Below the pieces are notes generated by a model, which saw only the letters and a list, made by a program, of their open reading frames with translations, had not been told where the DNA came from and searched no databases. A stretch of 59,657 bases of DNA, the filler included. It is 9 parts of 9 records of this genome, joined end to end, with 100 filler letters (N's around TTAATTAATTAA, not from the genome) between each part and the next. Parts side by side here need not be neighbours in the genome. Positions count along the whole stretch, not along the records: positions 40,717 to 47,019 come from SRR31156797_78917; 8 more parts are not named here. One strand, given 5' to 3'. The position numbers were made by a program, and so were the translations under genes. Shown one piece after another: positions 5,601 to 53,597 of the stretch (its first letter is position 1; every line of letters begins with the position of its first letter).

Positions 5601-5700
5601 NNNNNNNNNNNNNNNNNNNNNNNNNNNNNNNNNNNNNNNNNNNNTTAATTAATTAANNNNNNNNNNNNNNNNNNNNNNNNNNNNNNNNNNNNNNNNNNNN
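5601..5700. other. Artificial contig linker
   Basis: 44 N + TTAATTAATTAA (stops in all six frames) + 44 N; abrupt change in composition and gene content. Confidence 0.98.
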
Positions 5701-14380: not shown

Positions 14381-14480
14381 NNNNNNNNNNNNNNNNNNNN
14401 NNNNNNNNNNNNNNNNNNNNNNNNTTAATTAATTAANNNNNNNNNNNNNNNNNNNNNNNNNNNNNNNNNNNNNNNNNNNN
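14381..14480. other. Artificial contig linker
   Basis: N44-TTAATTAATTAA-N44. Confidence 0.98.
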
Positions 14481-21284: not shown

Positions 21285-21384
21285 NNNNNNNNNNNNNNNN
21301 NNNNNNNNNNNNNNNNNNNNNNNNNNNNTTAATTAATTAANNNNNNNNNNNNNNNNNNNNNNNNNNNNNNNNNNNNNNNNNNNN
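21285..21384. other. Artificial contig linker
   Basis: N44-TTAATTAATTAA-N44. Confidence 0.98.
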
Positions 21385-26631: not shown

Positions 26632-26731
26632 NNNNNNNNNNNNNNNNNNNNNNNNNNNNNNNNNNNNNNNNNNNNTTAATTAATTAANNNNNNNNNNNNN
26701 NNNNNNNNNNNNNNNNNNNNNNNNNNNNNNN
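26632..26731. other. Artificial contig linker
   Basis: N44-TTAATTAATTAA-N44. Confidence 0.98.
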
Positions 26732-35038: not shown

Positions 35039-35138
35039 NNNNNNNNNNNNNNNNNNNNNNNNNNNNNNNNNNNNNNNNNNNNTTAATTAATTAANNNNNN
35101 NNNNNNNNNNNNNNNNNNNNNNNNNNNNNNNNNNNNNN
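35039..35138. other. Artificial contig linker
   Basis: N44-TTAATTAATTAA-N44. Confidence 0.98.
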
Positions 35139-40616: not shown

Positions 40617-40716
40617 NNNNNNNNNNNNNNNNNNNNNNNNNNNNNNNNNNNNNNNNNNNNTTAATTAATTAANNNNNNNNNNNNNNNNNNNNNNNNNNNN
40701 NNNNNNNNNNNNNNNN
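40617..40716. other. Artificial contig linker
   Basis: N44-TTAATTAATTAA-N44. Confidence 0.98.
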
Positions 40717-40840
40717 AAAGTTAGGGAAAGGTCTGTTGTCTCGGCCGCCAAACTGCGGTAAGCTGCACCTACGTAGCAACGGGACAAGGTTCCAGGTGCA
40801 TCATGCAAGCAGGGATGAAATGGCTAAGGGAGAATGGATT

Positions 40841-41416
40841 ATGAAGGCCAGATTGGCGGTTTTGCTGTTGTGCACGGTCGGCGTCGGTGTGGGTTGTGCG
40901 ACGAGGCCTCAGTCAATCGCGTCACAGAATTACCTCTCGGCCCAGGTAGAGGAAACGATCGCGCTGTTCAAGATCAGAGATCCGGGCATCCAGGCATTCT
41001 TCGATGGGTCCTATGGCTGCGCCGTGCTGCCCAGAATTACGAAGGGTGCCCTGGTCGTCGGCGGGGCCCACGGCAAGGGCGAGGTCTTCAGCGGCGGCGT
41101 GAAGGTCGGTTACTGTAGCATGACCCAGGCCAGTATCGGCTTTTCCTTCGGGGGCGAGTATTTCCGCGAGATCGTCTTCTTCCGCGACAGGGTCGACTTG
41201 GACCGCTTCCGGATGGGCGACTTCACCTTCTCCGGGCAGGCAACCGCCGTGGCGCTAACAGCCGGTGCGGCAGCCAAGAGCGACTATGAGTATGGCATGG
41301 CGGTATTCATCATGCCCGATTCAGGCCTGATGGTCGATGCCTCCATCGCGGGCCAGAAGTTCAACTACGATCCGGCTTTCACGATGCGCGAAGAGCCACC
41401 GACCATATTGCCCTAG
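40841..41416 (+). CDS. YSC84/SYLF-like lipoprotein
   Basis: Lipobox VGC, KGALVVGGAHGKG, QASIGFSFGG, GLMVDASIAGQKF. Confidence 0.8.
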   Translation: MKARLAVLLLCTVGVGVGCATRPQSIASQNYLSAQVEETIALFKIRDPGIQAFFDGSYGCAVLPRITKGALVVGGAHGKGEVFSGGVKVGYCSMTQASIGFSFGGEYFREIVFFRDRVDLDRFRMGDFTFSGQATAVALTAGAAAKSDYEYGMAVFIMPDSGLMVDASIAGQKFNYDPAFTMREEPPTILP

Positions 41417-41447
41417 CGGACGACGCCGGAAAGAACCGTTTGCTGGT

Positions 41448-41915
41448 ATGTTGAGATCGGCCAAGACACGAAGCCAGTGCACCTGCGACCGAAGAACCTC
41501 CCTCCTCGGCCTCGCAGGCTTGGCGATTGTCGGTTTGCTGGCTGGATGCACCGCGCCATCACCTCAGGTCCGTGAGAGACCAACGGTCGTCATCACCGTG
41601 CGCAACAATTCGGGCGTCGATCTGCGCACGGTTTCGCTGCGCGGTTTGGCCCGGGCGGACGGTCAGGCTGACTCGTTCGGAACGATTTCACCAGTACCGC
41701 GCGGGACCTCACAGATACTCGGAAGACGCTCGGCGGCGTTTCCTCTGCCCAGCATTGTCGAGATCGCTTGGACTGATGAGCGCGATCGGAGTTACACCCG
41801 CAAGATCGCGCTGGAGCGGCTCCTGCAAAAGGTTGCTGACACGAGTCGAAAGGCACTGGTCCTCGAGATCCGTCCCGATGGGGAGTTGGTGGCCTACGAG
41901 CAGGACCGCGTTTGA
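41448..41915 (+). CDS. Hypothetical lipoprotein
   Basis: Hydrophobic stretch ending LLAGC followed by a beta-rich domain; start uncertain. Confidence 0.55.
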   Translation: MLRSAKTRSQCTCDRRTSLLGLAGLAIVGLLAGCTAPSPQVRERPTVVITVRNNSGVDLRTVSLRGLARADGQADSFGTISPVPRGTSQILGRRSAAFPLPSIVEIAWTDERDRSYTRKIALERLLQKVADTSRKALVLEIRPDGELVAYEQDRV

Positions 41916-41926
41916 CGGATGACTCG

Positions 41927-42268
41927 TTACGAACGGGCCACATCCACCCAGAACTGACCGACGGCTTTGTAGAACGTCAGGACGGACAGGATCGCACAGT
42001 GGCGATGCTCCGGCGGCAATTGGGGCAATTCATCGAGTACGTACTTCGCATTGATCGATAGCGCTTCGGGCAGCGTCTTGCCCTCGACGTATTGCGCTAC
42101 CGTCCGGCCACAGAGCTTGGTGAACTCGCAGCCATCGGTGTAGTAGCGGACCTTGCGGATCGCATCTTCCTCGATCACCAGGTAGAACTCCACGGTATCC
42201 CCGCACGGGCCGGTGTGCCAAGCCCCAGCGGAGGGATCCGTCATACGTCCATAGTACTCATCTGCCAC
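41927..42268 (-). CDS. IscU/NifU-N-like Fe-S scaffold family protein
   Basis: GPCGDT, DGC, HCA: the three U-type Cys motifs. Confidence 0.85.
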   Translation of the reverse strand: MADEYYGRMTDPSAGAWHTGPCGDTVEFYLVIEEDAIRKVRYYTDGCEFTKLCGRTVAQYVEGKTLPEALSINAKYVLDELPQLPPEHRHCAILSVLTFYKAVGQFWVDVARS

Positions 42269-42519
42269 GATTCAATCCTCGCTGTCTGAATTCGCCAGAA
42301 CGCGGGTCCATGCGCTGCCCAAACCAGTCGAAATGATTGCTGTCCGGCGCATTCTACGGCCTCATCCTGACATTCGCAATGCCGTCTTTGAATTGCACTG
42401 TCCAGCAGACAGCGCTTGGCTGTGAGCAATCGATGGCATATACTGGCAGCTCAGAGAGGCCGCTTGATGAGAGGCATCTTCCTGCAGGCAAGCATGGGGC
42501 GAAAGTGAGGACCGATACA

Positions 42520-43410
42520 ATGGCGCAGAATCAGCCCATGGCATTCAACGGACGTGCTTTCATTTCTACCCTGATGGGAGTCTCTTTCATCGGGATGTGC
42601 ATCACCGGGATCATTCTCTTCGTCGTGCCGCCGGGGCGCATCGCCAACTGGACCGGTTGGACGATCTTCGGCCTGACCAAACATCAGTGGCAAGGACTGC
42701 ACGTTTGGCTGAGTCTGGTGTTCATGGTCGCCGCGTGTGTCCATACGATCTTCAATTGGCACTGCCTGCTGAGCTATTTCAAGAGCAACGTCAAGAAGAC
42801 ACTGGCTCTGCGCTGGGAGTGGGTCTTGTCGCTCGTCGTCTGCGGTGGCGTCCTGCTGGGGACGCTGGCCAACGTCGCCCCATTTTCCAGTCTGATGGCC
42901 TGGAACGAAACGATCAAACACAGTTGGGACGACGGCCCGCAACGCGCGCCGATCCCGCACGCGGAACTCCTGACGCTGACGGAACTGACTGAGCATGTTG
43001 ACGGCATGACAACCGAGATGATTCTCGCCAACCTCCGCGCTCACGGGATCACCGTCGATTCGCCCGAGCAAATCGTTGGTGACCTGGCCGCCGCACACAA
43101 CCTCACGCCGGACCAGTTGTACCGGATCGCGATCGGCCAGACGCAAGGCGGGCGCGGTCACGGAGGCGGCGCTGGACAAGGAGCCGGCCGAGGTATGGGA
43201 GCAGGGCAGCACGGCGGAGGCGGGAGTGGCGGGCGCGGCTTGGGGCGTATGACACTGGCGCAATACTGCGACCAAGCCGGCATCGAAACCAAGACCGCCC
43301 TCAACAAACTCCGCCAAGCGGGACTAACGGCAACCGAAACCATGACCCTCCGTGATATCGCCGACTCCGGAAACCTCCACCCATCAGCCGTCGGCGATCT
43401 GCTCAAATGA
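42520..43410 (+). CDS. DUF4405-like membrane protein with Gly-rich linker
   Basis: TM segments with His (WQGLHVW, VHTIFNW), PPGRIANW, GGRGHGGGAGQGAGRG linker, duplicated small helical domains. Confidence 0.7.
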   Translation: MAQNQPMAFNGRAFISTLMGVSFIGMCITGIILFVVPPGRIANWTGWTIFGLTKHQWQGLHVWLSLVFMVAACVHTIFNWHCLLSYFKSNVKKTLALRWEWVLSLVVCGGVLLGTLANVAPFSSLMAWNETIKHSWDDGPQRAPIPHAELLTLTELTEHVDGMTTEMILANLRAHGITVDSPEQIVGDLAAAHNLTPDQLYRIAIGQTQGGRGHGGGAGQGAGRGMGAGQHGGGGSGGRGLGRMTLAQYCDQAGIETKTALNKLRQAGLTATETMTLRDIADSGNLHPSAVGDLLK

Positions 43411-43552
43411 GCGTGATGCCCTTCTTCTTACGAAGATCGAGACGATGGAAGGCACTTTCGTCGCCGAGGCCAGCTATGTGCCTGAAGGTTCGTTCTGACG
43501 CCTGGAAGGCGAAAAAGAACACTCTAATGAAGTTGTCAAAGAGCGATAGGGA

Positions 43553-44002
43553 TCATGCCGGAGACACACGTGGGCGCAGCTCGGCGCTGGCGGCGCGCTC
43601 TTTCATGATCCACGCATAGGCTTCGGGGTCTCCATCGCGGGCGTGCGGGTCGAACTTGATCTGCTGTTTCATCAGGGCCATCCGCCTTCGGCGCGGGAAG
43701 ATCGTACGGACGATCTGCCAAAACTGCCTGGATGTGACAACATTCAAAACACGTTCCGACTTGGGTGCCTTCTGCATGGCTGCTCTCCGCAGTTCGCGGG
43801 CGAGGGCCTGCACCTTGCCAATTCTGGGTCGGGCCGGGTCGTCGCGGATGTGGTGCCGACGGACCGCCTCGGTCAAGGTCGTGACATCATAGCGATTGAG
43901 CGCCTCGAACCAGTCGCCCAGGACGCAGCGGTTGACCTCCCACATGGGCCAGCGGGTTTGAACCTGTTCGCGAAACCACTCCAGGAATTCACGCTTGTTC
44001 AT
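43553..44002 (-). CDS. Hypothetical protein, possible phage helicase loader/inhibitor (G39P-like)
   Basis: ATG 44002 (MNKREFLEWF) overlaps upstream gene by 14 nt, GGAGGAG upstream; pattern WFEALNRYD...AV...P.I; position after replication initiator. Confidence 0.45.
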   Translation of the reverse strand: MNKREFLEWFREQVQTRWPMWEVNRCVLGDWFEALNRYDVTTLTEAVRRHHIRDDPARPRIGKVQALARELRRAAMQKAPKSERVLNVVTSRQFWQIVRTIFPRRRRMALMKQQIKFDPHARDGDPEAYAWIMKERAASAELRPRVSPA

Positions 44003-44555
44003 CGGATAGGAACTCCTCCTGGGCCTGGGCCAGCGCCGCCGCAGCCCGGTCGCGGTCCATCTCGGCAAACGTCTTGGAGAAACGCGAAGCAAAACGAGCC
44101 AGGGGGCCCTTTCCCTTCTTCTCGTTCTTCTCTTCTTGTCTATCGTGTTGCGCTTCCGTCATCTGGGCCGTCTCGGCCGCGTGGCGCCCGTAGTGAGCGG
44201 GATTCTGGTAACGCTCGTATTGACAGATGGTTATGATCAACCCGCGCGTAGTCCGTCGCGTCTCGATCATGTTTCGCCGGCGGTATCGCTCAAGTGCACG
44301 CCAGACGGCCGCCTTGCTCGGCGTACGCAACGAGCGGCCCGCGCGATGAGATAGCGCCCGCCGCATTTCGGGAATCGTCGCGAGGAGTTGCCCTCGTCGC
44401 AGCCGGCCGTGCGCGGTGTCGCCATCCTTGTGATTGGCCCGACAGTTCAGCCAGGTCCAGAGAACACGGTCCAGCAGCGGCGCCTCGTCGAGCACATCGA
44501 GAAAGTCTCTCGGATACAGGATGTAGCCACCCGGAATGTGAAGATTGGCTTTCAT
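43989..44555 (-). CDS. Phage-type replication initiator-like protein (wHTH)
   Basis: GGYILYPR...W.WL..RANHKD...RGQ...MI......G.IITICQY..YQ pattern of phage replication proteins; basic KNEKKGK patch. Confidence 0.6.
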   Translation of the reverse strand: MKANLHIPGGYILYPRDFLDVLDEAPLLDRVLWTWLNCRANHKDGDTAHGRLRRGQLLATIPEMRRALSHRAGRSLRTPSKAAVWRALERYRRRNMIETRRTTRGLIITICQYERYQNPAHYGRHAAETAQMTEAQHDRQEEKNEKKGKGPLARFASRFSKTFAEMDRDRAAAALAQAQEEFLSDEQA

Positions 44556-45187
44556 GCGCTCATCTCGTGATCTGTTTGCGTGACATAGCGCGTCGCGATG
44601 TCGGTCAGTGCGGCTGCCCGCCTGGCGGCTCGGGTCTTGGTCGTCGACTCCATGGCAGCCTGATTCACCGCTTCCTCGATCATCTCCTGCTGCGCCGCGC
44701 TCACGAAGAAGACGAGGGGGATCGCAAAAGCTCTCGCCTTCTGTTGTCGCACCCGTGCCAACGGCGCACGGCCGGTGAGGCGCTCCAACTGGCCCTTCGT
44801 TTGGGGTAAGAGTTTCGCCAGTTCCCGGGCGGGATGTTTGGTTGTGAGCCGGCGCAGGATCGCCAGCTTGCGATCGAGGATGTCACGCCCTGAGAGACGG
44901 TTGAGCGTGGCCAGCAGAATGTCGGTCTGCTCATCGCTCACATTCCAAACCACCGCTTGTGCCGTCGTATGGTTGAGCTTCTTGAGCGCGGCGCAACGGT
45001 GATGCCCATTGATGATCTGAAAGCAGCCTTGTCTGTGCGGATGTCGGCGCACCACCAGCGGCTCGTAGCATTCCGTTCGCTTAATGTGGCGCATCAGCTT
45101 GCCGAAGTTCGCCCGGCTCATTCGGTTGGGATTCTCCGGATGCGGAATCAGTTTCTCAAGCGAGATGTGTCGAATCTTCGACTTCAT
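44552..45187 (-). CDS. ParB/Srx N-terminal domain protein
   Basis: LIPHPENPN, EPLVVR, FQIINGHHR, LNRLSG; no obvious ParB HTH. Confidence 0.85.
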   Translation of the reverse strand: MKSKIRHISLEKLIPHPENPNRMSRANFGKLMRHIKRTECYEPLVVRRHPHRQGCFQIINGHHRCAALKKLNHTTAQAVVWNVSDEQTDILLATLNRLSGRDILDRKLAILRRLTTKHPARELAKLLPQTKGQLERLTGRAPLARVRQQKARAFAIPLVFFVSAAQQEMIEEAVNQAAMESTTKTRAARRAAALTDIATRYVTQTDHEMSA

Positions 45188-45930
45188 GGGATCGTCACCT
45201 CCAATTCAGGGTGGAACCAGATGTAGTAAGCCGGGCGCTGGGTCAGCTTGTTGAGGATGTAGCGTGTTCGTTCCAGGCCTGCGGGCATGGCACGTCGCGT
45301 GCCGTGGCTCTTAAGGAACTGCTCGATGCGTGTCTCCAGAAAGTCAACGGCGGGCCAGCCCAGCGCGTCGAGGTGCTTCTGCACAGCGTCAGAATCGATG
45401 AGTTGATCGGCCTCAATGCCGACGGTGCTGAAGGCCTCGACGAGTTGAACGTGGGCAACCGGCGTGCGGGGTGCGAAGGCCTGCATCCCGGCTCGCTCCA
45501 GAAACGGATTGACCTGAGGCATCACGCCCAGCGCCTCGATGATGGGGACCTCCATCCGAGGCATGGTCTCGCGCACCAGGCGGGTGGCCAGGCCGATCCC
45601 TCGAAAGCGAGGCTCGATGATGAGCCTCGCGATACATCGGATGTTCCGATTGATCAATGCCAATTGCGTCTGCTTGTCCAACTCGGCGAAGGCGCCGTCG
45701 GTTGCGACCGTACGCAGCTCGACGCGCGGATTGGGCGCGCAGTAGACAATCACGCCGGCCGGCCCCGCGCCCAGCATCCCACGCGGCGTCTTGGGCTTGA
45801 GCGCAAAGACCGCCTTGATCGCAACGGGCTTCTCCTCACGATAATGATACGGCGCGAGCACTTTGTAGTCGGCCAGATCGCCTTGGCTAATCTCAAGCTT
45901 TCTGTGCAGCGAGCACGTGGACATGGTCAT
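45184..45930 (-). CDS. GNAT-fold acyltransferase (COG2401/Mom-like)
   Basis: YHYR, IARLIIEPRFRGIGLA (acyl-CoA motif A), EALGVMPQVNPFLERAGM. Confidence 0.75.
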   Translation of the reverse strand: MTMSTCSLHRKLEISQGDLADYKVLAPYHYREEKPVAIKAVFALKPKTPRGMLGAGPAGVIVYCAPNPRVELRTVATDGAFAELDKQTQLALINRNIRCIARLIIEPRFRGIGLATRLVRETMPRMEVPIIEALGVMPQVNPFLERAGMQAFAPRTPVAHVQLVEAFSTVGIEADQLIDSDAVQKHLDALGWPAVDFLETRIEQFLKSHGTRRAMPAGLERTRYILNKLTQRPAYYIWFHPELEVTIP

Positions 45931-46571
45931 CTCCTGTTCTTGTAGATCACGTCGGCCGGGCCGGAGAAATCTTTGACCACGAGAACATCGGGGGCCAGGT
46001 CGACCAGGATGTCATCGCGGCTGGAGGCCAGGACGAATGTTGTGCCGGTCCGCTTGGCGAACTTGTGAATGTTGAAGGCCACCGTCGCAGCGGTGATGCG
46101 ATCCAGCTCCGAACAGAATTCATCGGCGAAAATGAATTCCTTCCCGGTCGCGAGCGCCTGGGCCAGGCGAAAGCGATACTTTTGTCCTTCGCTGAGACGG
46201 CTCGGCCGGTTCAGGACGGCAAAGACCTCACTGAGACCAACGACGCTCAATGTCTTCAAGGACGTTACGATGTCGGTCTCGAAGCAATCGATCACCATTC
46301 GACTCGTCGGCAGCGCGATGCTGGCCAGATTCACCCGTTGCGACGTCGGCACCGCGGCCTCCAACTCACGAAGCAAGACGCTCTTGCCTGAGCCGGAAGG
46401 CCCGGTGAGGTAGACGATGTTACCGGGGTTGATCTCGAGGCGGCACCGGTGTGTGGGGACCCGGTCAGCCAACCGGTCCGTCGTCAGGCCAAACATCCGG
46501 CACACCTGCACACCCTTGTCACTGAGTGGCCCTTGCCAAGGAAAGCGTTTCGATACGCTGTAAGTTGTCAT
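45927..46571 (-). CDS. Stand-alone ABC-type ATPase (COG2401 ATPase-like)
   Basis: Walker A GPSGSGKS, signature LSEGQKYR, Walker B FIFADEF, LDRITA; no permease adjacent. Confidence 0.85.
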   Translation of the reverse strand: MTTYSVSKRFPWQGPLSDKGVQVCRMFGLTTDRLADRVPTHRCRLEINPGNIVYLTGPSGSGKSVLLRELEAAVPTSQRVNLASIALPTSRMVIDCFETDIVTSLKTLSVVGLSEVFAVLNRPSRLSEGQKYRFRLAQALATGKEFIFADEFCSELDRITAATVAFNIHKFAKRTGTTFVLASSRDDILVDLAPDVLVVKDFSGPADVIYKNRR

Positions 46572-47019
46572 GAGTAGCTCACCTCATCATCTTTCCGCCC
46601 ACATGACGGGGTCGCGGCAGCGACAAGCTTCCTGGCTTTCAAGACCGTCGTCCGCACGCGGTAGTAGCTCGTGTTGCGGTTGCGGCCGATCCGGGCGAAC
46701 GACAGCCCGCGCAGGAAATGATCTCTAAGGATGGCCAGTTCGGGCCCACTGAACGCGGATCTATTCTCCAGACACACCGAGTAGGTCTCGTCGATGAGTC
46801 GCCGGACGATCTTCCGGATGCGCCGGATCACCGTGCTCGGGTTGGCCCCGATCAGCCGGGCGATCTGGCGGTAGCTGTGCCCATCCTCGAGATAGAGCGT
46901 CATGAGCAGCCGGTCTTCGCCGGCCAGCAGCGGGGCCCTCAGTCTCAGCATCTCCGCATAGCCCTGCCGGGTCGGATCTTCTTCCGCCAATGGTGCCGTG
47001 GAATACGCTCGCTTCGCAT
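46568..47019 (-). CDS. Sigma-70 region 4-like double-HTH DNA-binding protein (possibly 5'-truncated)
   Basis: DRLLMTLYLEDGHSYRQIARLIGANPSTVIRRI and ILRDHFLRGLSFARIGRNRNTSYYRVR; frame open to contig edge. Confidence 0.7.
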
Positions 47020-47119
47020 NNNNNNNNNNNNNNNNNNNNNNNNNNNNNNNNNNNNNNNNNNNNTTAATTAATTAANNNNNNNNNNNNNNNNNNNNNNNNN
47101 NNNNNNNNNNNNNNNNNNN
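47020..47119. other. Artificial contig linker
   Basis: N44-TTAATTAATTAA-N44. Confidence 0.98.
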
Positions 47120-47704
47120 TCCTCCGGTTCCCATGCTGAAGGCCGTATCGTCGGTAAGCAGATGGTCCGTTGGGTTGTCGATCACAAGGACTTCAAGCCC
47201 TCCATCAAAGAATCTGCTGCTGATCTCGCTAAAGAGCTCTACCAGCCCTGGTACACATACGAAGAGAACAAGGCCGGTTCCACCGATCCTGTTGTCAACC
47301 CTGCTTACATCACTCCCCACAACTTCATGATGCGCCTCATTAAGTGCACCGATGAATACGGTGGTGGTGTTGCTACTCTGTACATGACCTCCAAGGCTCT
47401 GCTGAACACCGGTTTCTGGTTGATCGGCATGATGGAAGAAGATTCCAAGAAGCTCGCAGCTCGTGATCTCCACGAACTGATGCGCTGCTGGGAACAGTTC
47501 CACCGCCTCTGGACCGTCCGTCTGCACATGCAGCACATCGAGTTCCGTGAAGAATCCCGTTACCCGGGCTTCTACTACCGCGGCGACTTCATGGGTCTGG
47601 ACGATTCCAAGTGGAAGTGCTTCTGTAACTCCAAGTACGATCCCGCCACTGGCGTGACTACTATCTTCAAGAAGCCTTACGTCAAGATCATCCCCGACGC
47701 CTAA
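47120..47704 (+). CDS. aprA: Adenylylsulfate reductase alpha subunit, C-terminus (5'-truncated)
   Basis: SSGSHAEGRI, DEYGGG, LHELMRCWE, FREESRYPGFYYR, WKCFCNSKY; upstream of qmoABC. Confidence 0.95.
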   Translation, partial: SSGSHAEGRIVGKQMVRWVVDHKDFKPSIKESAADLAKELYQPWYTYEENKAGSTDPVVNPAYITPHNFMMRLIKCTDEYGGGVATLYMTSKALLNTGFWLIGMMEEDSKKLAARDLHELMRCWEQFHRLWTVRLHMQHIEFREESRYPGFYYRGDFMGLDDSKWKCFCNSKYDPATGVTTIFKKPYVKIIPDA

Positions 47705-47725
47705 GCATTAGGTAATGATCACCCC

Positions 47726-47757
47726 GTGTCCGCGGGCCCCGGCCCGCGGACACTTTT
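47726..47757 (+). terminator. Intrinsic terminator/attenuator after aprA
   Basis: 12-bp stem GTGTCCGCGGGC-cccg-GCCCGCGGACAC followed by TTTT. Confidence 0.75.
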
Positions 47758-47772
47758 AAATGTCCGGGGCTG

Positions 47773-47828
47773 AAAATGGTCTGAATCCGGGCCGGGAACG
47801 GTCTCCCGGTCCGGGTTTAGGCCATTTT
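47773..47828 (+). promoter_or_regulatory. 25-bp RNA hairpin in the qmoA leader
   Basis: 47773-47797 pairs with 47804-47828 at all 25 positions, four of them G-U. Confidence 0.65.
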
Positions 47829-47868
47829 GTTGGCTGAGCCTCAACTTTATTCGGGAGGAATTAAGAGA

Positions 47869-49104
47869 ATGTCGAATAATAGTATTCTCGTTGTAGGCGG
47901 GGGGTTCGCAGGAATCACCGCCGCCCTCGAAGCTGCCGAAGTCGGCTACGAGGTGTACATCGTTGAAACTAATCCCTACATTGGTGGCAGGGTTGCACAG
48001 CTGAATCAGTATTTCCCCAAGCTGTGTCCTCCGTCCTGTGGTCTGGAGATTCAGTTTCAGCGGATTAAGAACAACCCAAATGTAAAGGTCATTACCATGG
48101 CCGATGTGACATCCGTTTCCGGCACTGCCGGCAACTATGATGTCAAAATCACGCAGCGTCCCCGCTTCGTGAACGAAAAATGTACTGCCTGCGGCGAGTG
48201 TGAGAAGGCAACTTCCACTCAGGTCGAGTCCGAATTTGATTTTGGTACCGGTACTCGCGGTCTGGCATACAAGACTCATCCCTTCATGTTCCCCATGCGC
48301 TACGTTGTGGATGCCGAGAATGCATCCGAGTCCGAGCTGGAAGCCATTAAAGCATCCTGTCCGTACGACGCAGTAGCTCTGGACGACGCTGCCAAGGAAA
48401 TTGATTTGGCTGTCGGCGCTATCGTTGTTGCGACTGGTTGGAAGCCTTACGATGTTTCCAAGCTGACCAACCTCGGCGGTGGTACCTTGAAGAATGTGGT
48501 CACCAACATGCAGTTCGAGCGTCTGTGTGCGCCCAACGGCCCAACTTCTGGCAAGATACAGCGTCCTTCTGACGGTGCAGAGCCCAAGAAGATCGCTTTT
48601 GTCCAGTGTGCCGGTTCTCGCGACCAGAATCACCTGAACTACTGTTCCTACATTTGCTGCATGGCTTCACTCAAGCATGTTCGCTATGTCCGTGAACGTT
48701 CTGACGCCAGCGCAACGATCTACTACATTGATCTGCGTACGCCTGGTCGTTACGACAAGTTCAAGTCCATTACCGAGGCCGATGAAAAACTCAGCTTGGT
48801 CAAGGGCAAGGTCGCTGACATTGTTGAAGACGCCCAAGGCAACCCAGTCGTCACTGTTGAAAATGCACTCACTGGTATTAAAACCGAAGAGACATTCGAC
48901 ATGGTCGTTCTGGCTACCGGCATGGAGCCCAGTTGTGCTGGTCTCAAGGCCCCGGCCGGAAGGATTGATGTTGACGGTTTCGTCATCGACGGCGAAGGAA
49001 TTATTGCCGCCGGTTGTGCCAAGCAGCCCTTTGACGTCATGAAGTCCGCCCAGTCCGGCACCGCTGCCGCGATGAAAGCGATTCAAACCGTGGTAGGGAG
49101 GTAA
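47869..49104 (+). CDS. qmoA: Quinone-modifying oxidoreductase subunit A (HdrA-like)
   Basis: VVGGGFAG, YFPKLCPPSCG, CTACGEC, CAGSRD...YCSYICC; GGGAGG RBS; after aprA. Confidence 0.95.
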   Translation: MSNNSILVVGGGFAGITAALEAAEVGYEVYIVETNPYIGGRVAQLNQYFPKLCPPSCGLEIQFQRIKNNPNVKVITMADVTSVSGTAGNYDVKITQRPRFVNEKCTACGECEKATSTQVESEFDFGTGTRGLAYKTHPFMFPMRYVVDAENASESELEAIKASCPYDAVALDDAAKEIDLAVGAIVVATGWKPYDVSKLTNLGGGTLKNVVTNMQFERLCAPNGPTSGKIQRPSDGAEPKKIAFVQCAGSRDQNHLNYCSYICCMASLKHVRYVRERSDASATIYYIDLRTPGRYDKFKSITEADEKLSLVKGKVADIVEDAQGNPVVTVENALTGIKTEETFDMVVLATGMEPSCAGLKAPAGRIDVDGFVIDGEGIIAAGCAKQPFDVMKSAQSGTAAAMKAIQTVVGR

Positions 49105-49107
49105 CCA

Positions 49108-51378
49108 ATGGCTGAAAAGCTTGGAGTATATATCTGTGGAGGTTGTGACATCGGGGCAAATCTCGATGTCGACGCCCTGGCCGAGTTCGCTGGAAACGGC
49201 AAACACTCCTCCAACGTTGCCGTGGCCAAGTCTAATCCGGTTCTTTGTAGCCCGGAAGGCAAGGCCATGATTGAGGCCGATATCGCCGAGAACGATTTGG
49301 ACGGCGTGGTTTGCTGCGCCTGTTCCTCCCGCGCCAAGTGGGATGTTTTCAAGTTTGGCGAAAAAGTTCAGGTAGAACGAGTCTCTCTGCGTGAGCAGTG
49401 CGTCTGGTCCTATCAGGAAGACCCTCAGTTCCCTGGTCAGATGGAAGTCATCGCCAAGGACTACACCAATATGGGAATCATCAAGCTGATCAACAGCCGG
49501 ATTCCCGAACCGGAACTGCCGGATCCTTACAAGACCATTATGGTCGTGGGTGGCGGTTACACCGGTTTGAACGCGGCGCTTAATGCCGCCAGCGTAGGTT
49601 ACTCCGTAATCCTCGTTGAACAGGATGATAAGCTTGGTGGCAAGGCTGCCACCATGTACAAATCCTATCCGCTGGGTGCACCTTTTGGTGACCGTGCGGA
49701 AAAGATTGATGTTGCAGGTGTGATCAACCAGGTCGAGTCCAACGACAAGATTCAGGTTATCACCGGCGCTACTGTTGAAGCTCTGGCTGGTGCTCCGGCC
49801 CAGTATAAGGCCACAGTCGGTGGTACAGAATATGAAGTCGGTGCAGTCGTCATGGCTACCGGTTTTGTTCCCGGCAAGACAGAATTCCTGGCTCCCTTAG
49901 GTTACGGTTCCATCAAGAACGTCGTGACTTCTGCCGAGTTCGAGGCCATGGCTGCTAACGGCGGTATCAAGACCGCAGACGGTCGGACTCCTTCCTCCGT
50001 CGCTTTCATCGTTGACACTTCCCTCCTCATGGAAGGCGTCACCTACGATCCTTGCGGCGAAGCATGTGAAGAAGAACTTCCCTGCGACGAAAGCAGCACT
50101 GAAGATGATGAGTGTGAGACCTTCCATTACCCGGATAAGGAATCCGCTAAACATCTGGCATACAGTTCCGAGTTGACTTCCCTGGTCGCTTTGAAACATG
50201 CCAATTACGTGCGTGAACTTGCTCCCAATGCCACAGCCTACGTGATTTATGATCACATGATGGTTCCGGGCATTAACGAAAAATACTATCAGGCCGCTCA
50301 GGATGACGCGGGTATTATGTTGACCAAGGGCACCGTCACCGGTGTTTCCGAGGCCGGCAGTTCCGTGGTCGTCAAGGCCAAGGATACCCTGTTGGGTGCA
50401 AACATCGAACTGGCCGCCGACATGGTTGTGGTTCCCACCGCCATCGTCCCGACCACCGCTGCCAACCCGACAATGAACTTCGTCTATCGTCAGGGTCCGG
50501 CTTTCCCGGACCTCGAATTGTTCGACGGGTTTGCTGATTCCAACTATATCTGCTTCCCCTACGAGACCCGCCGTACAGGCGTTTACGCCGCTGGTTGCGT
50601 GCGTCAGCCCATGGGCCTTGGTCTCGCCGCAGAGGATGCAGCCGGTGCCGCCCTCAAGGCTATCCAGTGCATCGAGTCCGCCAACCGTGGTATGTCTGTA
50701 CATCCCCGTTCCGGTGACTTGAGTTTCCCCGAGTTCAACTTCATGCGTTGTACTCAGTGTAAACGTTGCACCGAGGAATGCCCGTTTGGTGCTTTGGATG
50801 ATGACGAGAAGGGTACGCCGCTTCCGAATCCCACCCGTTGCCGCCGTTGCGGTACGTGCATGGGTGCCTGTCCGGAACGTGTTATCTCCTTCTCCAACTA
50901 CGGCATCACTCAGATTGGTCAGGCCATCAAGGAAGTCAAAGTTCCCGATACTCTGGAAGAAGGCGGTCCCCGCATTATCGTCCTGGCGTGTGAGAACGAT
51001 GCTACCCCGGCTCTGGACATGGCTGCCATGCGCGGTAAGAGTTGGAGCCCATACGTGCGCTTCATCCCCGTGCGCTGCCTTGGTTCTGTCAATGCCATCT
51101 GGGTCGCTGACGCAATGTCCAAGGGCGTTGACGGCGTGATGATGCTTGGCTGTAAGTACGGCGACGACTACCAGTGCCACTTCGTCAAGGGTTCCGAACT
51201 GTGTAACCGCCGTAAGGAAAACATCGCTGAGTCCCTGGGACGTCTCGGTGTCGAGCCTGAACGCGTTGAACAGTACGAGGTCTCCATCGACATGTACGAT
51301 CAGGTCCCGGCCATGATCGATGAGTTCGTTGAGAACATCACCACCAACTTTGGCCCCAACCCGTTCAAGGGTTACTAG
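49108..51378 (+). CDS. qmoB: Quinone-modifying oxidoreductase subunit B (HdrA/MvhD-like)
   Basis: FAD motif, ferredoxin CTQCKRCTEECP/CRRCGTCMGACP, MvhD-like ACEND, VRCLGS, GCKYGDDYQCHF; GPNPFKG end. Confidence 0.95.
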   Translation: MAEKLGVYICGGCDIGANLDVDALAEFAGNGKHSSNVAVAKSNPVLCSPEGKAMIEADIAENDLDGVVCCACSSRAKWDVFKFGEKVQVERVSLREQCVWSYQEDPQFPGQMEVIAKDYTNMGIIKLINSRIPEPELPDPYKTIMVVGGGYTGLNAALNAASVGYSVILVEQDDKLGGKAATMYKSYPLGAPFGDRAEKIDVAGVINQVESNDKIQVITGATVEALAGAPAQYKATVGGTEYEVGAVVMATGFVPGKTEFLAPLGYGSIKNVVTSAEFEAMAANGGIKTADGRTPSSVAFIVDTSLLMEGVTYDPCGEACEEELPCDESSTEDDECETFHYPDKESAKHLAYSSELTSLVALKHANYVRELAPNATAYVIYDHMMVPGINEKYYQAAQDDAGIMLTKGTVTGVSEAGSSVVVKAKDTLLGANIELAADMVVVPTAIVPTTAANPTMNFVYRQGPAFPDLELFDGFADSNYICFPYETRRTGVYAAGCVRQPMGLGLAAEDAAGAALKAIQCIESANRGMSVHPRSGDLSFPEFNFMRCTQCKRCTEECPFGALDDDEKGTPLPNPTRCRRCGTCMGACPERVISFSNYGITQIGQAIKEVKVPDTLEEGGPRIIVLACENDATPALDMAAMRGKSWSPYVRFIPVRCLGSVNAIWVADAMSKGVDGVMMLGCKYGDDYQCHFVKGSELCNRRKENIAESLGRLGVEPERVEQYEVSIDMYDQVPAMIDEFVENITTNFGPNPFKGY

Positions 51379-51388
51379 GAGGTACGGC

Positions 51389-52660
51389 ATGTCTAATACC
51401 GTCAAGGTACAACCGGACCTTAAGTTCGTAGAAGAGTTGCAGGCCGTAGGCGGCGACTCCCTGAAAAAATGCTACCAGTGCGCCACCTGCTCGGTGGTCT
51501 GCCCTCTGTCCCCGGCTGACAACCCGTATCCCCGTAAGGAGATGGTCTGGGCTCAGTGGGGTCTCAAGGATCGCCTGGTTAACGATATTGATATCTGGTT
51601 GTGTCATAACTGCGGCACCTGTTCTACATTGTGCCCCCGTGGTGCCAAGCCGGGCGACCTGTTGGCTGCCCTGCGTAACATGGCCTATCGCAATCTGGCT
51701 CCGCTGCCGATTATCGGCAAGCTGATGTCCAACTCCAGCGGCATGCTGCCCCTGGCTGCGGTTCCGGCTCTGTTCTACGGCATTATTTGGTTCATCATGG
51801 CTGGCAAGGTTGGTTCCTTCCTGCCTACATTCAATTGGGATGCAGCCACTCATAGCTGGGTTCCTGCCGCTGATGGTCAGATCGTCTTCGGTGGTCTGTT
51901 CCCCGGTGATTATGTTATTGACCCTGTTTTCATGTTGGTTTTCGCCTTCATGATCTGGGGATTTTATGCCGGTGTGCGCAATATGCTCAAGGCCTTCAAA
52001 GAGCAGCCCAAGACATTCATCGTTGGTCGTAAAGATGAGCCGAGCTTCATCGCTTGTCTGATCGATACCGCCAAGTATGAAATCCTGCAGCACACTCAGT
52101 TCCTCGATTGTAATGATGATGACGCTGACGAGTTGGATATCAAGCGCGCTTCCGGCCACCGCTGGTTGATGTTCTCTTTTATCGCTCTGATGATCGTTAC
52201 CGGTACTGTCGCTGCAGGTCACTGGGGCGGCTGGACACTGCGTTTCCTTGGCATCACTGGCCTGGGCGACATCGTGTCTGCTATCGGTCATACACCCATG
52301 CCGTTCTATCATCCTGTCAAGCTGTTGGCCTTGGTCGGCGCTGGTCTGGGTGTTTACGGCCTCATGGCTTTGACCAAACGTCGCGTGAATCTGGACCAAA
52401 CCAAGCAGTCTTCCAGCTGGTATGACTGGTACCTGATCACTTTGATCTGGACCATATTCCTGACTGGTATCGCTGCCATGGTCTTCCGTGTACTCGGCGT
52501 GGCTGTACTGGCTTACCCGATCTATTACGTGCATCTGATCGGTGTGTTCATGCTGCTCGCATACCTGCCGTGGTCCAAGTTGGGTCACCTCGTATACCGT
52601 ACAGTGGCATTGTCCTACGCCAAGCAGATTGGCCGCATCCCCATGGGCGCCGACAAATAG
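51389..52660 (+). CDS. qmoC: Quinone-modifying oxidoreductase subunit C (HdrC/HdrE-like membrane subunit)
   Basis: CYQCATCSVVCP, CHNCGTCSTLCP, TM helices with His, PWSKLGH. Confidence 0.95.
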   Translation: MSNTVKVQPDLKFVEELQAVGGDSLKKCYQCATCSVVCPLSPADNPYPRKEMVWAQWGLKDRLVNDIDIWLCHNCGTCSTLCPRGAKPGDLLAALRNMAYRNLAPLPIIGKLMSNSSGMLPLAAVPALFYGIIWFIMAGKVGSFLPTFNWDAATHSWVPAADGQIVFGGLFPGDYVIDPVFMLVFAFMIWGFYAGVRNMLKAFKEQPKTFIVGRKDEPSFIACLIDTAKYEILQHTQFLDCNDDDADELDIKRASGHRWLMFSFIALMIVTGTVAAGHWGGWTLRFLGITGLGDIVSAIGHTPMPFYHPVKLLALVGAGLGVYGLMALTKRRVNLDQTKQSSSWYDWYLITLIWTIFLTGIAAMVFRVLGVAVLAYPIYYVHLIGVFMLLAYLPWSKLGHLVYRTVALSYAKQIGRIPMGADK

Positions 52661-53497: not shown

Positions 53498-53597
53498 NNN
53501 NNNNNNNNNNNNNNNNNNNNNNNNNNNNNNNNNNNNNNNNNTTAATTAATTAANNNNNNNNNNNNNNNNNNNNNNNNNNNNNNNNNNNNNNNNNNNN
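53498..53597. other. Artificial contig linker
   Basis: N44-TTAATTAATTAA-N44. Confidence 0.98.

Follow-up and report, generated by a model that had tools for sequence, protein, structure and literature searches.

The window analysed here is a stretch of 59,657 nucleotides, filler included, in which nine contig pieces of one genome are joined end to end. One of these pieces, at positions 40717-47019, carries on its minus strand a compact cassette encoding an ABC ATPase, a protein of the GNAT acyltransferase fold and a ParB-type protein. Relatives of these genes stand together in phages and in Planctomycetota. The module is a phage-derived, conserved operon, and in the lineage of the window it is a chromosomal cassette.

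Organisation of the cassette

The piece that houses the cassette is 6.3 kb long and has a G+C content of about 0.60. Its minus strand contains six consecutive open reading frames (ORFs), the first five of which (HTH, ABC ATPase, GNAT, ParB-N and DnaD-like) are ATGA-coupled, with the sixth following after them. In order of transcription, with lengths in amino acids (aa), they are:

46568..46990, minus strand: helix-turn-helix (HTH) protein, sigma-70 region 4-like, 140 aa, first gene of the operon (Pfam)
45927..46571, minus strand: ABC ATPase, a soluble, minimal nucleotide-binding domain, 214 aa (Pfam ABC_tran, phrog_293)
45184..45930, minus strand: GNAT-fold acyltransferase, 248 aa (AlphaFold2 (AF2) model, phrog_886)
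44552..45187, minus strand: ParB-N protein, 211 aa (Pfam ParB_N, phrog_498, phrog_723)
43989..44555, minus strand: DnaD-like (replication-initiator-like) winged-helix protein, 188 aa (phrog_2514, phrog_7498)
43553..44002, minus strand: last ORF of the cassette, 149 aa, family not recognised, conserved in the related loci L058 and L061

The start of the 149-aa ORF was placed at an internal conserved Met of a 179-aa ORF, and the 5′ region of the operon is cut off at the contig end, 47019. A first-pass annotation, made from the letters of the window, had called the ABC, GNAT and ParB-N genes, and all three ORFs are indeed present on the minus strand. The ATGA coupling that it reported is genuine and comprises four overlaps (HTH/ABC, ABC/GNAT, GNAT/ParB and ParB/DnaD-like) rather than two. 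The motifs that it listed were also all found: GPSGSGKS at 57, LSEGQ at 126 and FADEF at 148 of the ABC protein, HY at 29-30 and RLIIEPRFRGIGLA at 102-115 of the GNAT protein, and GHHR at 61-64 of the ParB protein.

Relatives of the cassette were collected in Planctomycetota, the phylum of the closest genome match, where 401 genomes were searched and the GNAT gene was found in 63. About 19 kb around 20 of these genes were examined which, together with L005, a locus of a Phycisphaerales metagenome-assembled genome (MAG), gave 21 loci. An IMG/VR alignment scan contributed 2 loci and single-protein scans of genome and metagenome contigs contributed 1 and 6; the context survey is small. Counts of neighbouring genes given below come from gene clustering over 28 loci plus the window.

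The ATPase and the GNAT protein

The GNAT protein gives sub-threshold matches only in Pfam (Acetyltransf_10, 14.9 bits against 23.6; Acetyltransf_1, 13.9 bits against 20.7), though some of its homologues exceed a Pfam GNAT gathering score. It matches phrog_886 (E 1.2e-13), which bears the name "ABC transporter ATP-binding subunit", and nothing in NCBIfam or PADLOC. Its AF2 model (pLDDT 95.4, pTM 0.88) follows the strand order of GNATs and has two extra elements. One, a helical segment, lies between strands 3 and 4; the other, an insertion of about 80 residues that makes up four helices (residues 158-230), separates strand 6 (150-152) from strand 7 (234-239). Since the model is confident and resembles many solved GNATs with Z scores of 10-12, the GNAT fold is, as judged from the predicted structure, certain despite the sub-threshold Pfam matches.

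Six residues (H29, Y30, R73, N94, R102 and E132) are invariant among 56 diverse GNAT homologues that are 27-55% identical to the window protein. When the window is compared with the 28 loci, all 29 sequences have R73, R102, R110, G111, G113, E132 and G148, as well as [R/Q]108; A115 is found in 27, and H29/Y30 in 26, the other three being truncations or gaps. The pattern [R/Q]108-x-R110-G111-x-G113-x-A115 at the strand 4/helix 3 junction is the canonical acyl-CoA pyrophosphate-binding motif, and because it is kept complete, an acyl-CoA appears to be the likely donor.

A wide VIA search with the GNAT model retrieved 163 chains at Z >= 8, and the 50 listed (Z 9.9-11.9) were all of GNAT type. In a second look, 688 of 998 chains reached Z >= 8 and Mom of phage Mu (8bv8) was at rank 2 (Z 11.9, root-mean-square deviation (rmsd) 3.7, 148 residues aligned), tied with NAA60, glyphosate acetyltransferase and others; a further Mom match had Z 11.3 with 151 residues aligned. 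The lowest Foldseek E-values were those of TmcA (2zpa, 4.7e-5) and NAT10 (9j3c, 1.4e-4), both with TMq of 0.36-0.37, and Mom was at rank 9. In the viral library BFVD a phage Mom was found at rank 6, while ESM Atlas returned only unnamed or GNAT-named clusters, commonest in Planctomycetota. The structural comparison proposed in the first-pass annotation thus puts Mom and TmcA among the best matches, yet does not set them apart from GNATs acting on proteins or small molecules, and, the scores being tied, the substrate cannot be read from the fold.

The ABC protein scores well above the cut-off of Pfam ABC_tran (E 2.5e-12; 48 bits against 25) and matches phrog_293 (E 3.1e-28), whereas NCBIfam transporter models all remain far under their cut-offs (for example, 66 bits against 295.8). 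In an alignment of 19 ABC sequences the Walker A motif, the LSxGQ signature and the Walker B Asp-Glu pair are invariant or nearly so, with G57, S59, G60, G62, K63, L126, S127, G129, D150 and E151 being invariant. The Q-loop position is Asp or Glu. At the H-loop, Arg185 occurs in 5 of the 19 sequences (window, L005, L058, L061 and L040) and His in 10. Loss of the H-loop His usually slows ATP hydrolysis by ABC proteins. Since Arg takes the place of this His in the clade of the window, the motif suggests that the window ATPase may be an ATP-binding switch, for which ATP serves less as fuel.

Genes for the two proteins are closely tied. In 17 of the 21 loci an ABC homologue immediately precedes the GNAT, and in 6 of those 17 the two are fused (459-559 aa). 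A profile-free search of 1.84 billion representatives yielded 1278 GNAT relatives at E <= 0.001; among the matches listed, 12 representatives of 453-558 aa have the GNAT match in the C-terminal half (E 1e-23 to 1e-26), and 11 of these 12 carry an N-terminal ABC_tran domain. Phage records label homologues [quoted passage not shown]. Because the two are fused in so many relatives, the ATPase and the GNAT protein are, going by their sequences, two halves of one enzyme or functional unit. The suggestion that the window carries a split form of a fused ABC-GNAT protein is thereby borne out, both in planctomycete loci and among the long representatives.

Among the annotated neighbours of the module, in the 28 loci and in the window alike, none was recognised as a permease gene; L042 has a haem ABC importer 3 kb off, on the opposite strand and with its own ATPase. 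The first-pass annotation had noted that no membrane subunit is adjacent and had taken routine association of the ATPase homologues with permeases as something that would refute its reading. The first point holds, the nearby DUF4405 membrane protein not being an ABC permease, and on the second the outcome favours a role other than transport. A predicted complex of the ABC and GNAT proteins with the ParB partner, computed with alignments not used, had a score of 0.19 and a mark of 0.34, and says nothing either way.

Several other candidates were considered. The ABC protein gives PADLOC matches to mad3 (E 1.6e-14, residues 121-200, a generic ABC region) and mad8 (5.5e-5); the MADS system (mad1-mad8) was rejected, these partial ABC matches being the only ones and none being obtained for the GNAT protein, the DnaD-like protein or the last ORF. 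Comparison of P0128 with the ABC protein revealed no similarity.

The ParB protein

The ParB protein exceeds the cut-off of Pfam ParB_N (E 1.7e-7; 31.7 bits against 26.3) and matches phrog_498 (E 1.8e-14) and phrog_723 (E 1.3e-13). In phrog_498, a "DNA methyltransferase" family, it is the ParB portion at the N-terminus that is matched, and the PADLOC match is MTase_II. N21, G61, R64, N96 and G100 are invariant and L98 is kept in an alignment of 28 sequences. The AF2 model (pLDDT 84.6, pTM 0.60) is most like Noc, chromosomal ParB and KorB, with Foldseek matches to Noc (7nfu_B, E 2.9e-8) and to Caulobacter ParB (6t1f_D, rmsd 4.1 over 140 columns). Foldseek alignments to Noc and ParB span 138-198 columns, more than the roughly 90 residues of the N-domain; with sulfiredoxin and serine-kinase-type ParB folds the match is confined to the first ~85-95 residues. 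To us, residues ~120-139 look like the HTH of ParB, and on the basis of the model the protein probably has a ParB-type HTH and a helical C-terminus. The view that this protein lacks an obvious ParB HTH is thus doubtful and probably wrong. DNA binding is its most likely role, since the model resembles HTH-bearing DNA clamps.

ParB is a recurrent partner of the module, as had been supposed: a ParB gene is a neighbour in 18 of the 28 loci as well as in the window, and in 14 of the 21 loci it follows the GNAT gene. At least 715 homologues of the GNAT protein and at least 1715 of the ParB protein exist; given these numbers and dN/dS values (ratios of nonsynonymous to synonymous substitution rates) of 0.06-0.25 against orthologues, the three-gene arrangement is not a chance observation.

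In L005 (10744-11379) the ParB orthologue has an in-frame stop and is seen as two ORFs, with one frame in tblastn; this could be a pseudogene or an assembly error. A candidate GNAT-ParB fusion, P0135 (467 aa), was compared with the ParB protein and showed no similarity.

The module in phages

A tblastn search revealed the GNAT gene in 27 of 50,697 phage records, at 22-28% identity. The carriers include SSU5-like phage-plasmids and Pseudomonas nickie-like, Rhizobium RHEph10-like and Stenotrophomonas ANB28-like phages, and gene order was examined at four loci, those of SSU5, nickie, RHEph10 and ANB28. In all four, a divergent helicase gene is followed by two ParB genes, an ABC ATPase gene, one or two small ORFs (none in ANB28), a GNAT-like gene of ~280-295 aa and a small ORF. 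Next in nickie and RHEph10 come a gene labelled "DNA binding domain" and those for the large terminase and the portal. The linear SSU5 record closes with the module and opens with a DNA-binding gene and the terminase. Genes downstream of the module in ANB28 are all hypothetical, and the terminase is read there from gene order and size alone. The IMG/VR contig L057 has the order ParB, ABC, GNAT, a 194-aa ORF and a Terminase_6N gene.

Some of the labels in these records deserve comment. The GNAT-like gene of phage modules is labelled "ABC transporter ATP-binding subunit". The "DNA methyltransferase" genes of NC_042091 (gp158) and NC_034248 (gp083) are only 220-230 aa long and carry ParB-like notes; this name probably derives from the ParB part of PHROG 498. 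In another IMG/VR contig, L056 (1-8812), a GNAT homologue at the contig start is followed by tail tube and tape-measure genes and is not terminase-proximal.

The module in Planctomycetota and in the clade of the window

In the 28 loci the module is often accompanied by phage-type genes. A divergent repressor with HTH_3 and Peptidase_S24 domains (LexA/CI-like) is found in 11 of them. A large terminase of one family is found in 10 and terminases of other families in 2 more (L049 and L057), so that overall a large terminase stands beside the module in 12 of the 28. Six loci have a small ORF between ParB and the large terminase (TerL), one of which matches a small terminase (TerS) PHROG. L049 is the only locus in which a portal (phrog_145, E 1.7e-66) and a capsid gene come next, giving it the appearance of a complete prophage.

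Eight loci (L042, L043, L044, L047, L050, L051, L052 and L054) share one organisation: a repressor divergent from HTH-ABC-GNAT-ParB-small ORF-TerL, at ~7-12.5 kb within the locus. No portal or capsid gene is present within ~8 kb of these "headless" cassettes, which are flanked by genes for haem uptake, RNase R, phosphoglycerate mutase, methylmalonyl-CoA mutase and glycogen debranching; L044, L047, L051 and L054 have flanking families in common. All 9 cassette TerL sequences compared retain the ATPase and nuclease motifs. In Pfam nothing significant was found for the small ORF of the terminase-type cassettes, and its comparison with the DnaD-like protein, as a possible homologue located after ParB, was negative (probability 0.2%, no similarity).

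The closest relatives of the window GNAT are 84% (L005), 85% (L058 and L061), 83% (L059) and 68% (L060) identical to it. The same six genes are present in L058 and L061, and in L005 up to an assembly gap inside the DnaD-like gene. L059 is a 2-kb fragment with the ABC, GNAT and ParB genes only, and L060 has an ABC-GNAT fusion without the DnaD-like gene, with a terminase of the cassette family 2 kb downstream, past two inserted genes. Upstream, a BD-FAE esterase gene is shared by L005, L058, L060 and L061 and a nitroreductase gene by L005, L058 and L061; downstream, L061 has a DUF4405 gene, as does the window. Because the neighbourhood is conserved across the clade, we conclude that the cassette is vertically inherited in the Phycisphaerae-like lineage of the window. 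Pairwise synonymous divergence (dS) is 0.55-1.35 and dN/dS 0.06-0.25 for all five genes tested, indicating purifying selection on the cassette genes. No terminase of the cassette family was detectable in the sequences of the window, L005, L058 and L061.

In three further loci (L036, L037 and L039) GNAT homologues that are 40-42% identical to that of the window (at ~9-10 kb) have flanking families common to L060 and L061. No recognisable ABC or ParB neighbour is present in these loci, and in L037 and L039 an unassigned ORF of 141-191 aa lies upstream of the GNAT gene.

Other genes of the cassette and its surroundings

The HTH protein matches Pfam HTH_38 (E 3.8e-7) and Sigma70_r4_2 (E 6e-7), with a weak Phage_antitermQ match (20.4 bits) under the cut-off. 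Its homologues precede the ABC gene in 11 of the 21 loci and also in L058, L060 and L061. The DnaD-like protein has no Pfam or NCBIfam match; its matches are to two families called "DnaD-like helicase loader", phrog_2514 (E 2.2e-16) and phrog_7498 (E 1.3e-10). Its gene (dN/dS 0.17-0.25) is confined to the close clade, L005, L058 and L061. The coupling to replication genes claimed in the first-pass annotation thus holds in this clade only, and there through a gene named by PHROG alone; elsewhere the neighbours are terminase genes. The last ORF gives a weak match to phrog_6055 only (E 5e-4), and is 72-75% identical to its counterparts in L058 and L061, with the same MNKR... start and dN/dS of 0.11-0.25.

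Beyond the cassette, on the opposite strand, the piece contains a NifU-like gene and the following gene:

42337-43410, opposite strand: DUF4405 membrane protein, 140 nt past the cassette (Pfam)

ORF calls and Pfam revealed no ParA gene on the cassette contig, and Rfam gave no match there. A scan for promoters and terminators found one promoter-like site (0.8 expected) and eight terminator-like sites (2.9 expected), none of them informatively placed. The sequencing runs listed as containing this DNA comprised the probable source sample and one 5% match, with no RNA run among them.

The pieces of the window are separated by eight linkers, each consisting of 44 N, TTAATTAATTAA and 44 N:

5601-5700, linker
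14381-14480, linker
21285-21384, linker
26632-26731, linker
35039-35138, linker
40617-40716, linker
47020-47119, linker
53498-53597, linker

The usable context of the cassette is therefore 40717-47019 only, and adjacency across linkers is meaningless. The adjacent piece contains, at 47162-52660, the 3′ end of aprA, two HdrA-like (QmoA/B-like) genes and qmoC (NCBIfam qmoC, E 1.8e-141). These are genes of sulfate reducers, whereas the cassette contig is 83-89% identical and syntenic to Phycisphaerales MAG loci, and for this reason the bin may be mixed.

Possible functions of the module

We tentatively propose, with a probability of roughly 0.4, that the module acts as an ATP-coupled acyltransferase directed at DNA and brought there by a ParB-type protein. 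With its HTH and an NTP-binding N-domain like that of Noc, ParB and KorB, this protein would bind the DNA of the element and bring the ATPase-GNAT enzyme to it. Binding of ATP by dimerising ABC domains would then close or position the GNAT domains, and these would pass an acyl group from acyl-CoA to a base, a step that would parallel the ATPase-coupled acetylation of cytidine by TmcA/NAT10 and the acylation of adenine by Mom. A DNA-bound protein would be a less likely acceptor. The mark would protect or label the DNA ahead of packaging or replication. Our inference, drawn from the partners and motifs described above, is that the enzyme acts on DNA and transfers acyl groups from acyl-CoA in an ATP-controlled manner.

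A more specific version would make the module a DNA hypermodification machine: a ParB-type clamp would load the ABC-ATPase/GNAT enzyme, which would use acyl-CoA and ATP to acylate bases of double-stranded DNA. Phages would do this before packaging, and Planctomycetota would have domesticated the machine: in one lineage its companion would be the replication-initiator-like gene, in others a "headless" terminase controlled by a LexA/CI-like repressor. The latter arrangement would hint at a damage-inducible system for marking DNA and cutting or transferring it. In all its detail this version is unlikely.

A number of observations weigh against the proposal. The terminase is the strongest contextual link, and it fits packaging as well as modification. 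Z scores of 10-12 are obtained alike for Mom and for GNATs of proteins and small molecules, and do not separate them; TmcA and NAT10 are absent from the VIA top 50. For Mom itself, PMC13219725 states that neither substrate nor co-substrate could be predicted from its structural neighbours. The Pfam Mom model, PF25680, does not occur among the Pfam matches of the GNAT protein at E <= 0.1, and in hhalign a profile of 56 family sequences compared with one of 28 Mom sequences gave a probability of 0.7% (E 0.08), while global mode gave no alignment. The Tyr that usually serves as general acid in helix 4 is Phe or Leu in the GNAT family, and with Arg for the H-loop His in the clade of the window ATP turnover may be poor. 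Finally, no parS-like inverted repeat is common to the window, L005, L058 and L061.

The same arrangement could reflect a way of handling DNA linked to packaging or replication in which no base is modified. ParB would mark a site and the ATPase-GNAT unit would regulate terminase or replication proteins, for example by acetylating TerS, ParB or the initiator. As can be seen from the gene order, the module lies directly before TerS/TerL in the four phage loci (in ANB28 by order and size), in L057 and in the prophage L049, and TerL adjoins it in 12 of the 28 loci; the DnaD-like gene fills the position after ParB in the clade of the window, and the ParB model resembles HTH-bearing partition and regulatory ParBs. 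However, the window cassette and its orthologues have no terminase in the available sequence and are nonetheless under purifying selection, and no packaging system is known to use a GNAT. On balance, this explanation seems to us rather unlikely. One can also imagine a conflict module, used by phages in counter-defence and, once domesticated, in defence or abortive infection, in which the GNAT would acetylate a protein or an aminoacyl-tRNA in the manner of AcrVA5-, TacT- or AtaT-type enzymes, with the ATPase and ParB as sensor or regulator. The LexA/CI-like repressor that adjoins 11 of the 28 loci is typical of early or accessory phage genes, cassettes set amid housekeeping genes with a terminase-like nuclease as their only such component could be domesticated defence, AtaT with acetyl-Met-tRNA is at Foldseek rank 37, and the C-terminal part of the ABC protein matches mad3. 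That match is limited to the generic ABC region, though, and PADLOC gives neither a GNAT match nor a system-level match; there is no conserved antitoxin-like small partner, and the synteny, kept over dS of 0.55-1.35, is unlike that of fast-turnover defence islands. We consider this role improbable.

It is still less credible that an ordinary transporter ATPase happens to neighbour an unrelated acetyltransferase, or that the cassette is a decaying, functionless prophage remnant. The best solved relatives of the ABC profile are indeed nucleotide-binding domains of transporters (OpuCA, E 2.2e-31, and ABCB1), the PHROG names of both the ABC and the GNAT families are "ABC transporter", and the stop in the L005 ParB would suit decay. 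Against this stand the absence of a recognised permease next to the module in the loci annotated, the transporter models left far under their cut-offs, the ATPase-GNAT fusions of many relatives, dN/dS of 0.06-0.25 for all genes and four intact ATGA couplings. Since the fusion and selection data already contradict it, such an origin is highly improbable. The remaining probability belongs to roles outside these four readings.

We searched the literature and found no description of a module of ParB, ABC ATPase and GNAT, and no paper on COG2401 or on an ABC-type ATPase fused to an acetyltransferase. Searches for SSU5 with ParB, ABC or terminase, judged on titles and abstract openings, also left the module undescribed. 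The GNAT passages in PMC10853773 and PMC12839542 concern other systems. In the literature searched, both the cross-phylum linkage of ParB and ABC-GNAT followed by TerS/TerL and the planctomycete terminase cassettes without structural genes thus appear undescribed.

If the proposed acylation of DNA with acyl-CoA under ATPase and ParB control is true, it would represent a novel enzymatic way of hypermodifying DNA, standing beside Mom with its tRNA donor and the RNA acetylation of TmcA/NAT10. It would also give a function to a widespread and uncharacterised family of fused ABC-acetyltransferase proteins that is mislabelled "ABC transporter" in phage annotation. Whatever the substrate, the linkage and the headless cassettes lend themselves to direct tests in phages that can be cultured, SSU5 and nickie among them.

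Comparison with known systems

CTP-dependent clamps of the ParB/Noc/KorB kind resemble the window ParB in having ParB_N above threshold, and both the N-domain and a part of the DNA-binding domain are matched. The clamps have a GERR motif, ParA and parS, whereas the window protein has GHHR, neither ParA nor a parS-like repeat was found with it, and its partners are the ABC and GNAT proteins.

According to PMC13219725, Mom moves glycine from Gly-tRNA(Gly) onto N6 of adenine in double-stranded DNA. Its site is lined by H58, Y59, R111, S124, D149, R151 and Y159, of which R111, S124 and R151 are essential, and an HTH-like insertion at ~175-209, also essential, is the proposed DNA binder (PMC13219725). 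Mom and the window family share the GNAT fold and association with phages, and both place an HY dyad just past the first helix and an Arg, invariant in the family, within strand 4; these residues are putative positional counterparts. Both also have a helical insertion before the last strand, of ~35 residues in Mom and ~80 in the family, an equivalence that follows from sequence order only. In contrast, the family keeps the acyl-CoA glycine motif that Mom lacks, S124 lying in that loop, and Mom acts as a single enzyme whereas the window GNAT needs ATPase and ParB partners. The non-significant hhalign alignment places R102 on R111, R73 on R95 and E132 on Q145, which is topologically sensible, and F109 on the essential S124. 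Comparison with a single Mom sequence gave a probability of 0.3%. PF25680 is present in all 120 Mom homologues listed, and its absence here together with the non-significant profile comparison rules out membership in the Mom family. The Mom likeness suggested in the first-pass annotation is thus upheld in part, by the tied top structural match and by the putative counterparts of HY, Arg and insertion, but not by Pfam, by hhalign or by the acyl-CoA motif, which the family has retained. Its mode of action may be that of Mom or TmcA, but the family is distinct from Mom.

TmcA and NAT10 (Kre33) likewise join a P-loop ATPase to an acyl-CoA-dependent GNAT, which in their case acetylates N4 of cytidine in RNA. 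Their ATPase is of helicase type, whereas that of the window is an ABC domain, and only the GNAT part matches. The TmcA architecture also includes DUF1726 and a tRNA-binding domain, neither of which is present in the window system. With ABC_tran as the ATPase partner and no helicase-type fusion, assignment to the TmcA/NAT10 type was rejected.

The fused ABC-GNAT proteins of PHROG 293/886 are the nearest known counterpart, both halves being homologous to the window proteins and, in phages, ParB and then terminase being their neighbours. COG2401, the name used in the first-pass annotation, is probably the label of this fused architecture. The family itself is uncharacterised and is known only as an annotation class. 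In SSU5, too, the form is split, into SSU5_127 and SSU5_129. The fused proteins are one chain, whereas the window has separate overlapping genes, Arg at the H-loop and a DnaD-like gene in place of the terminase.

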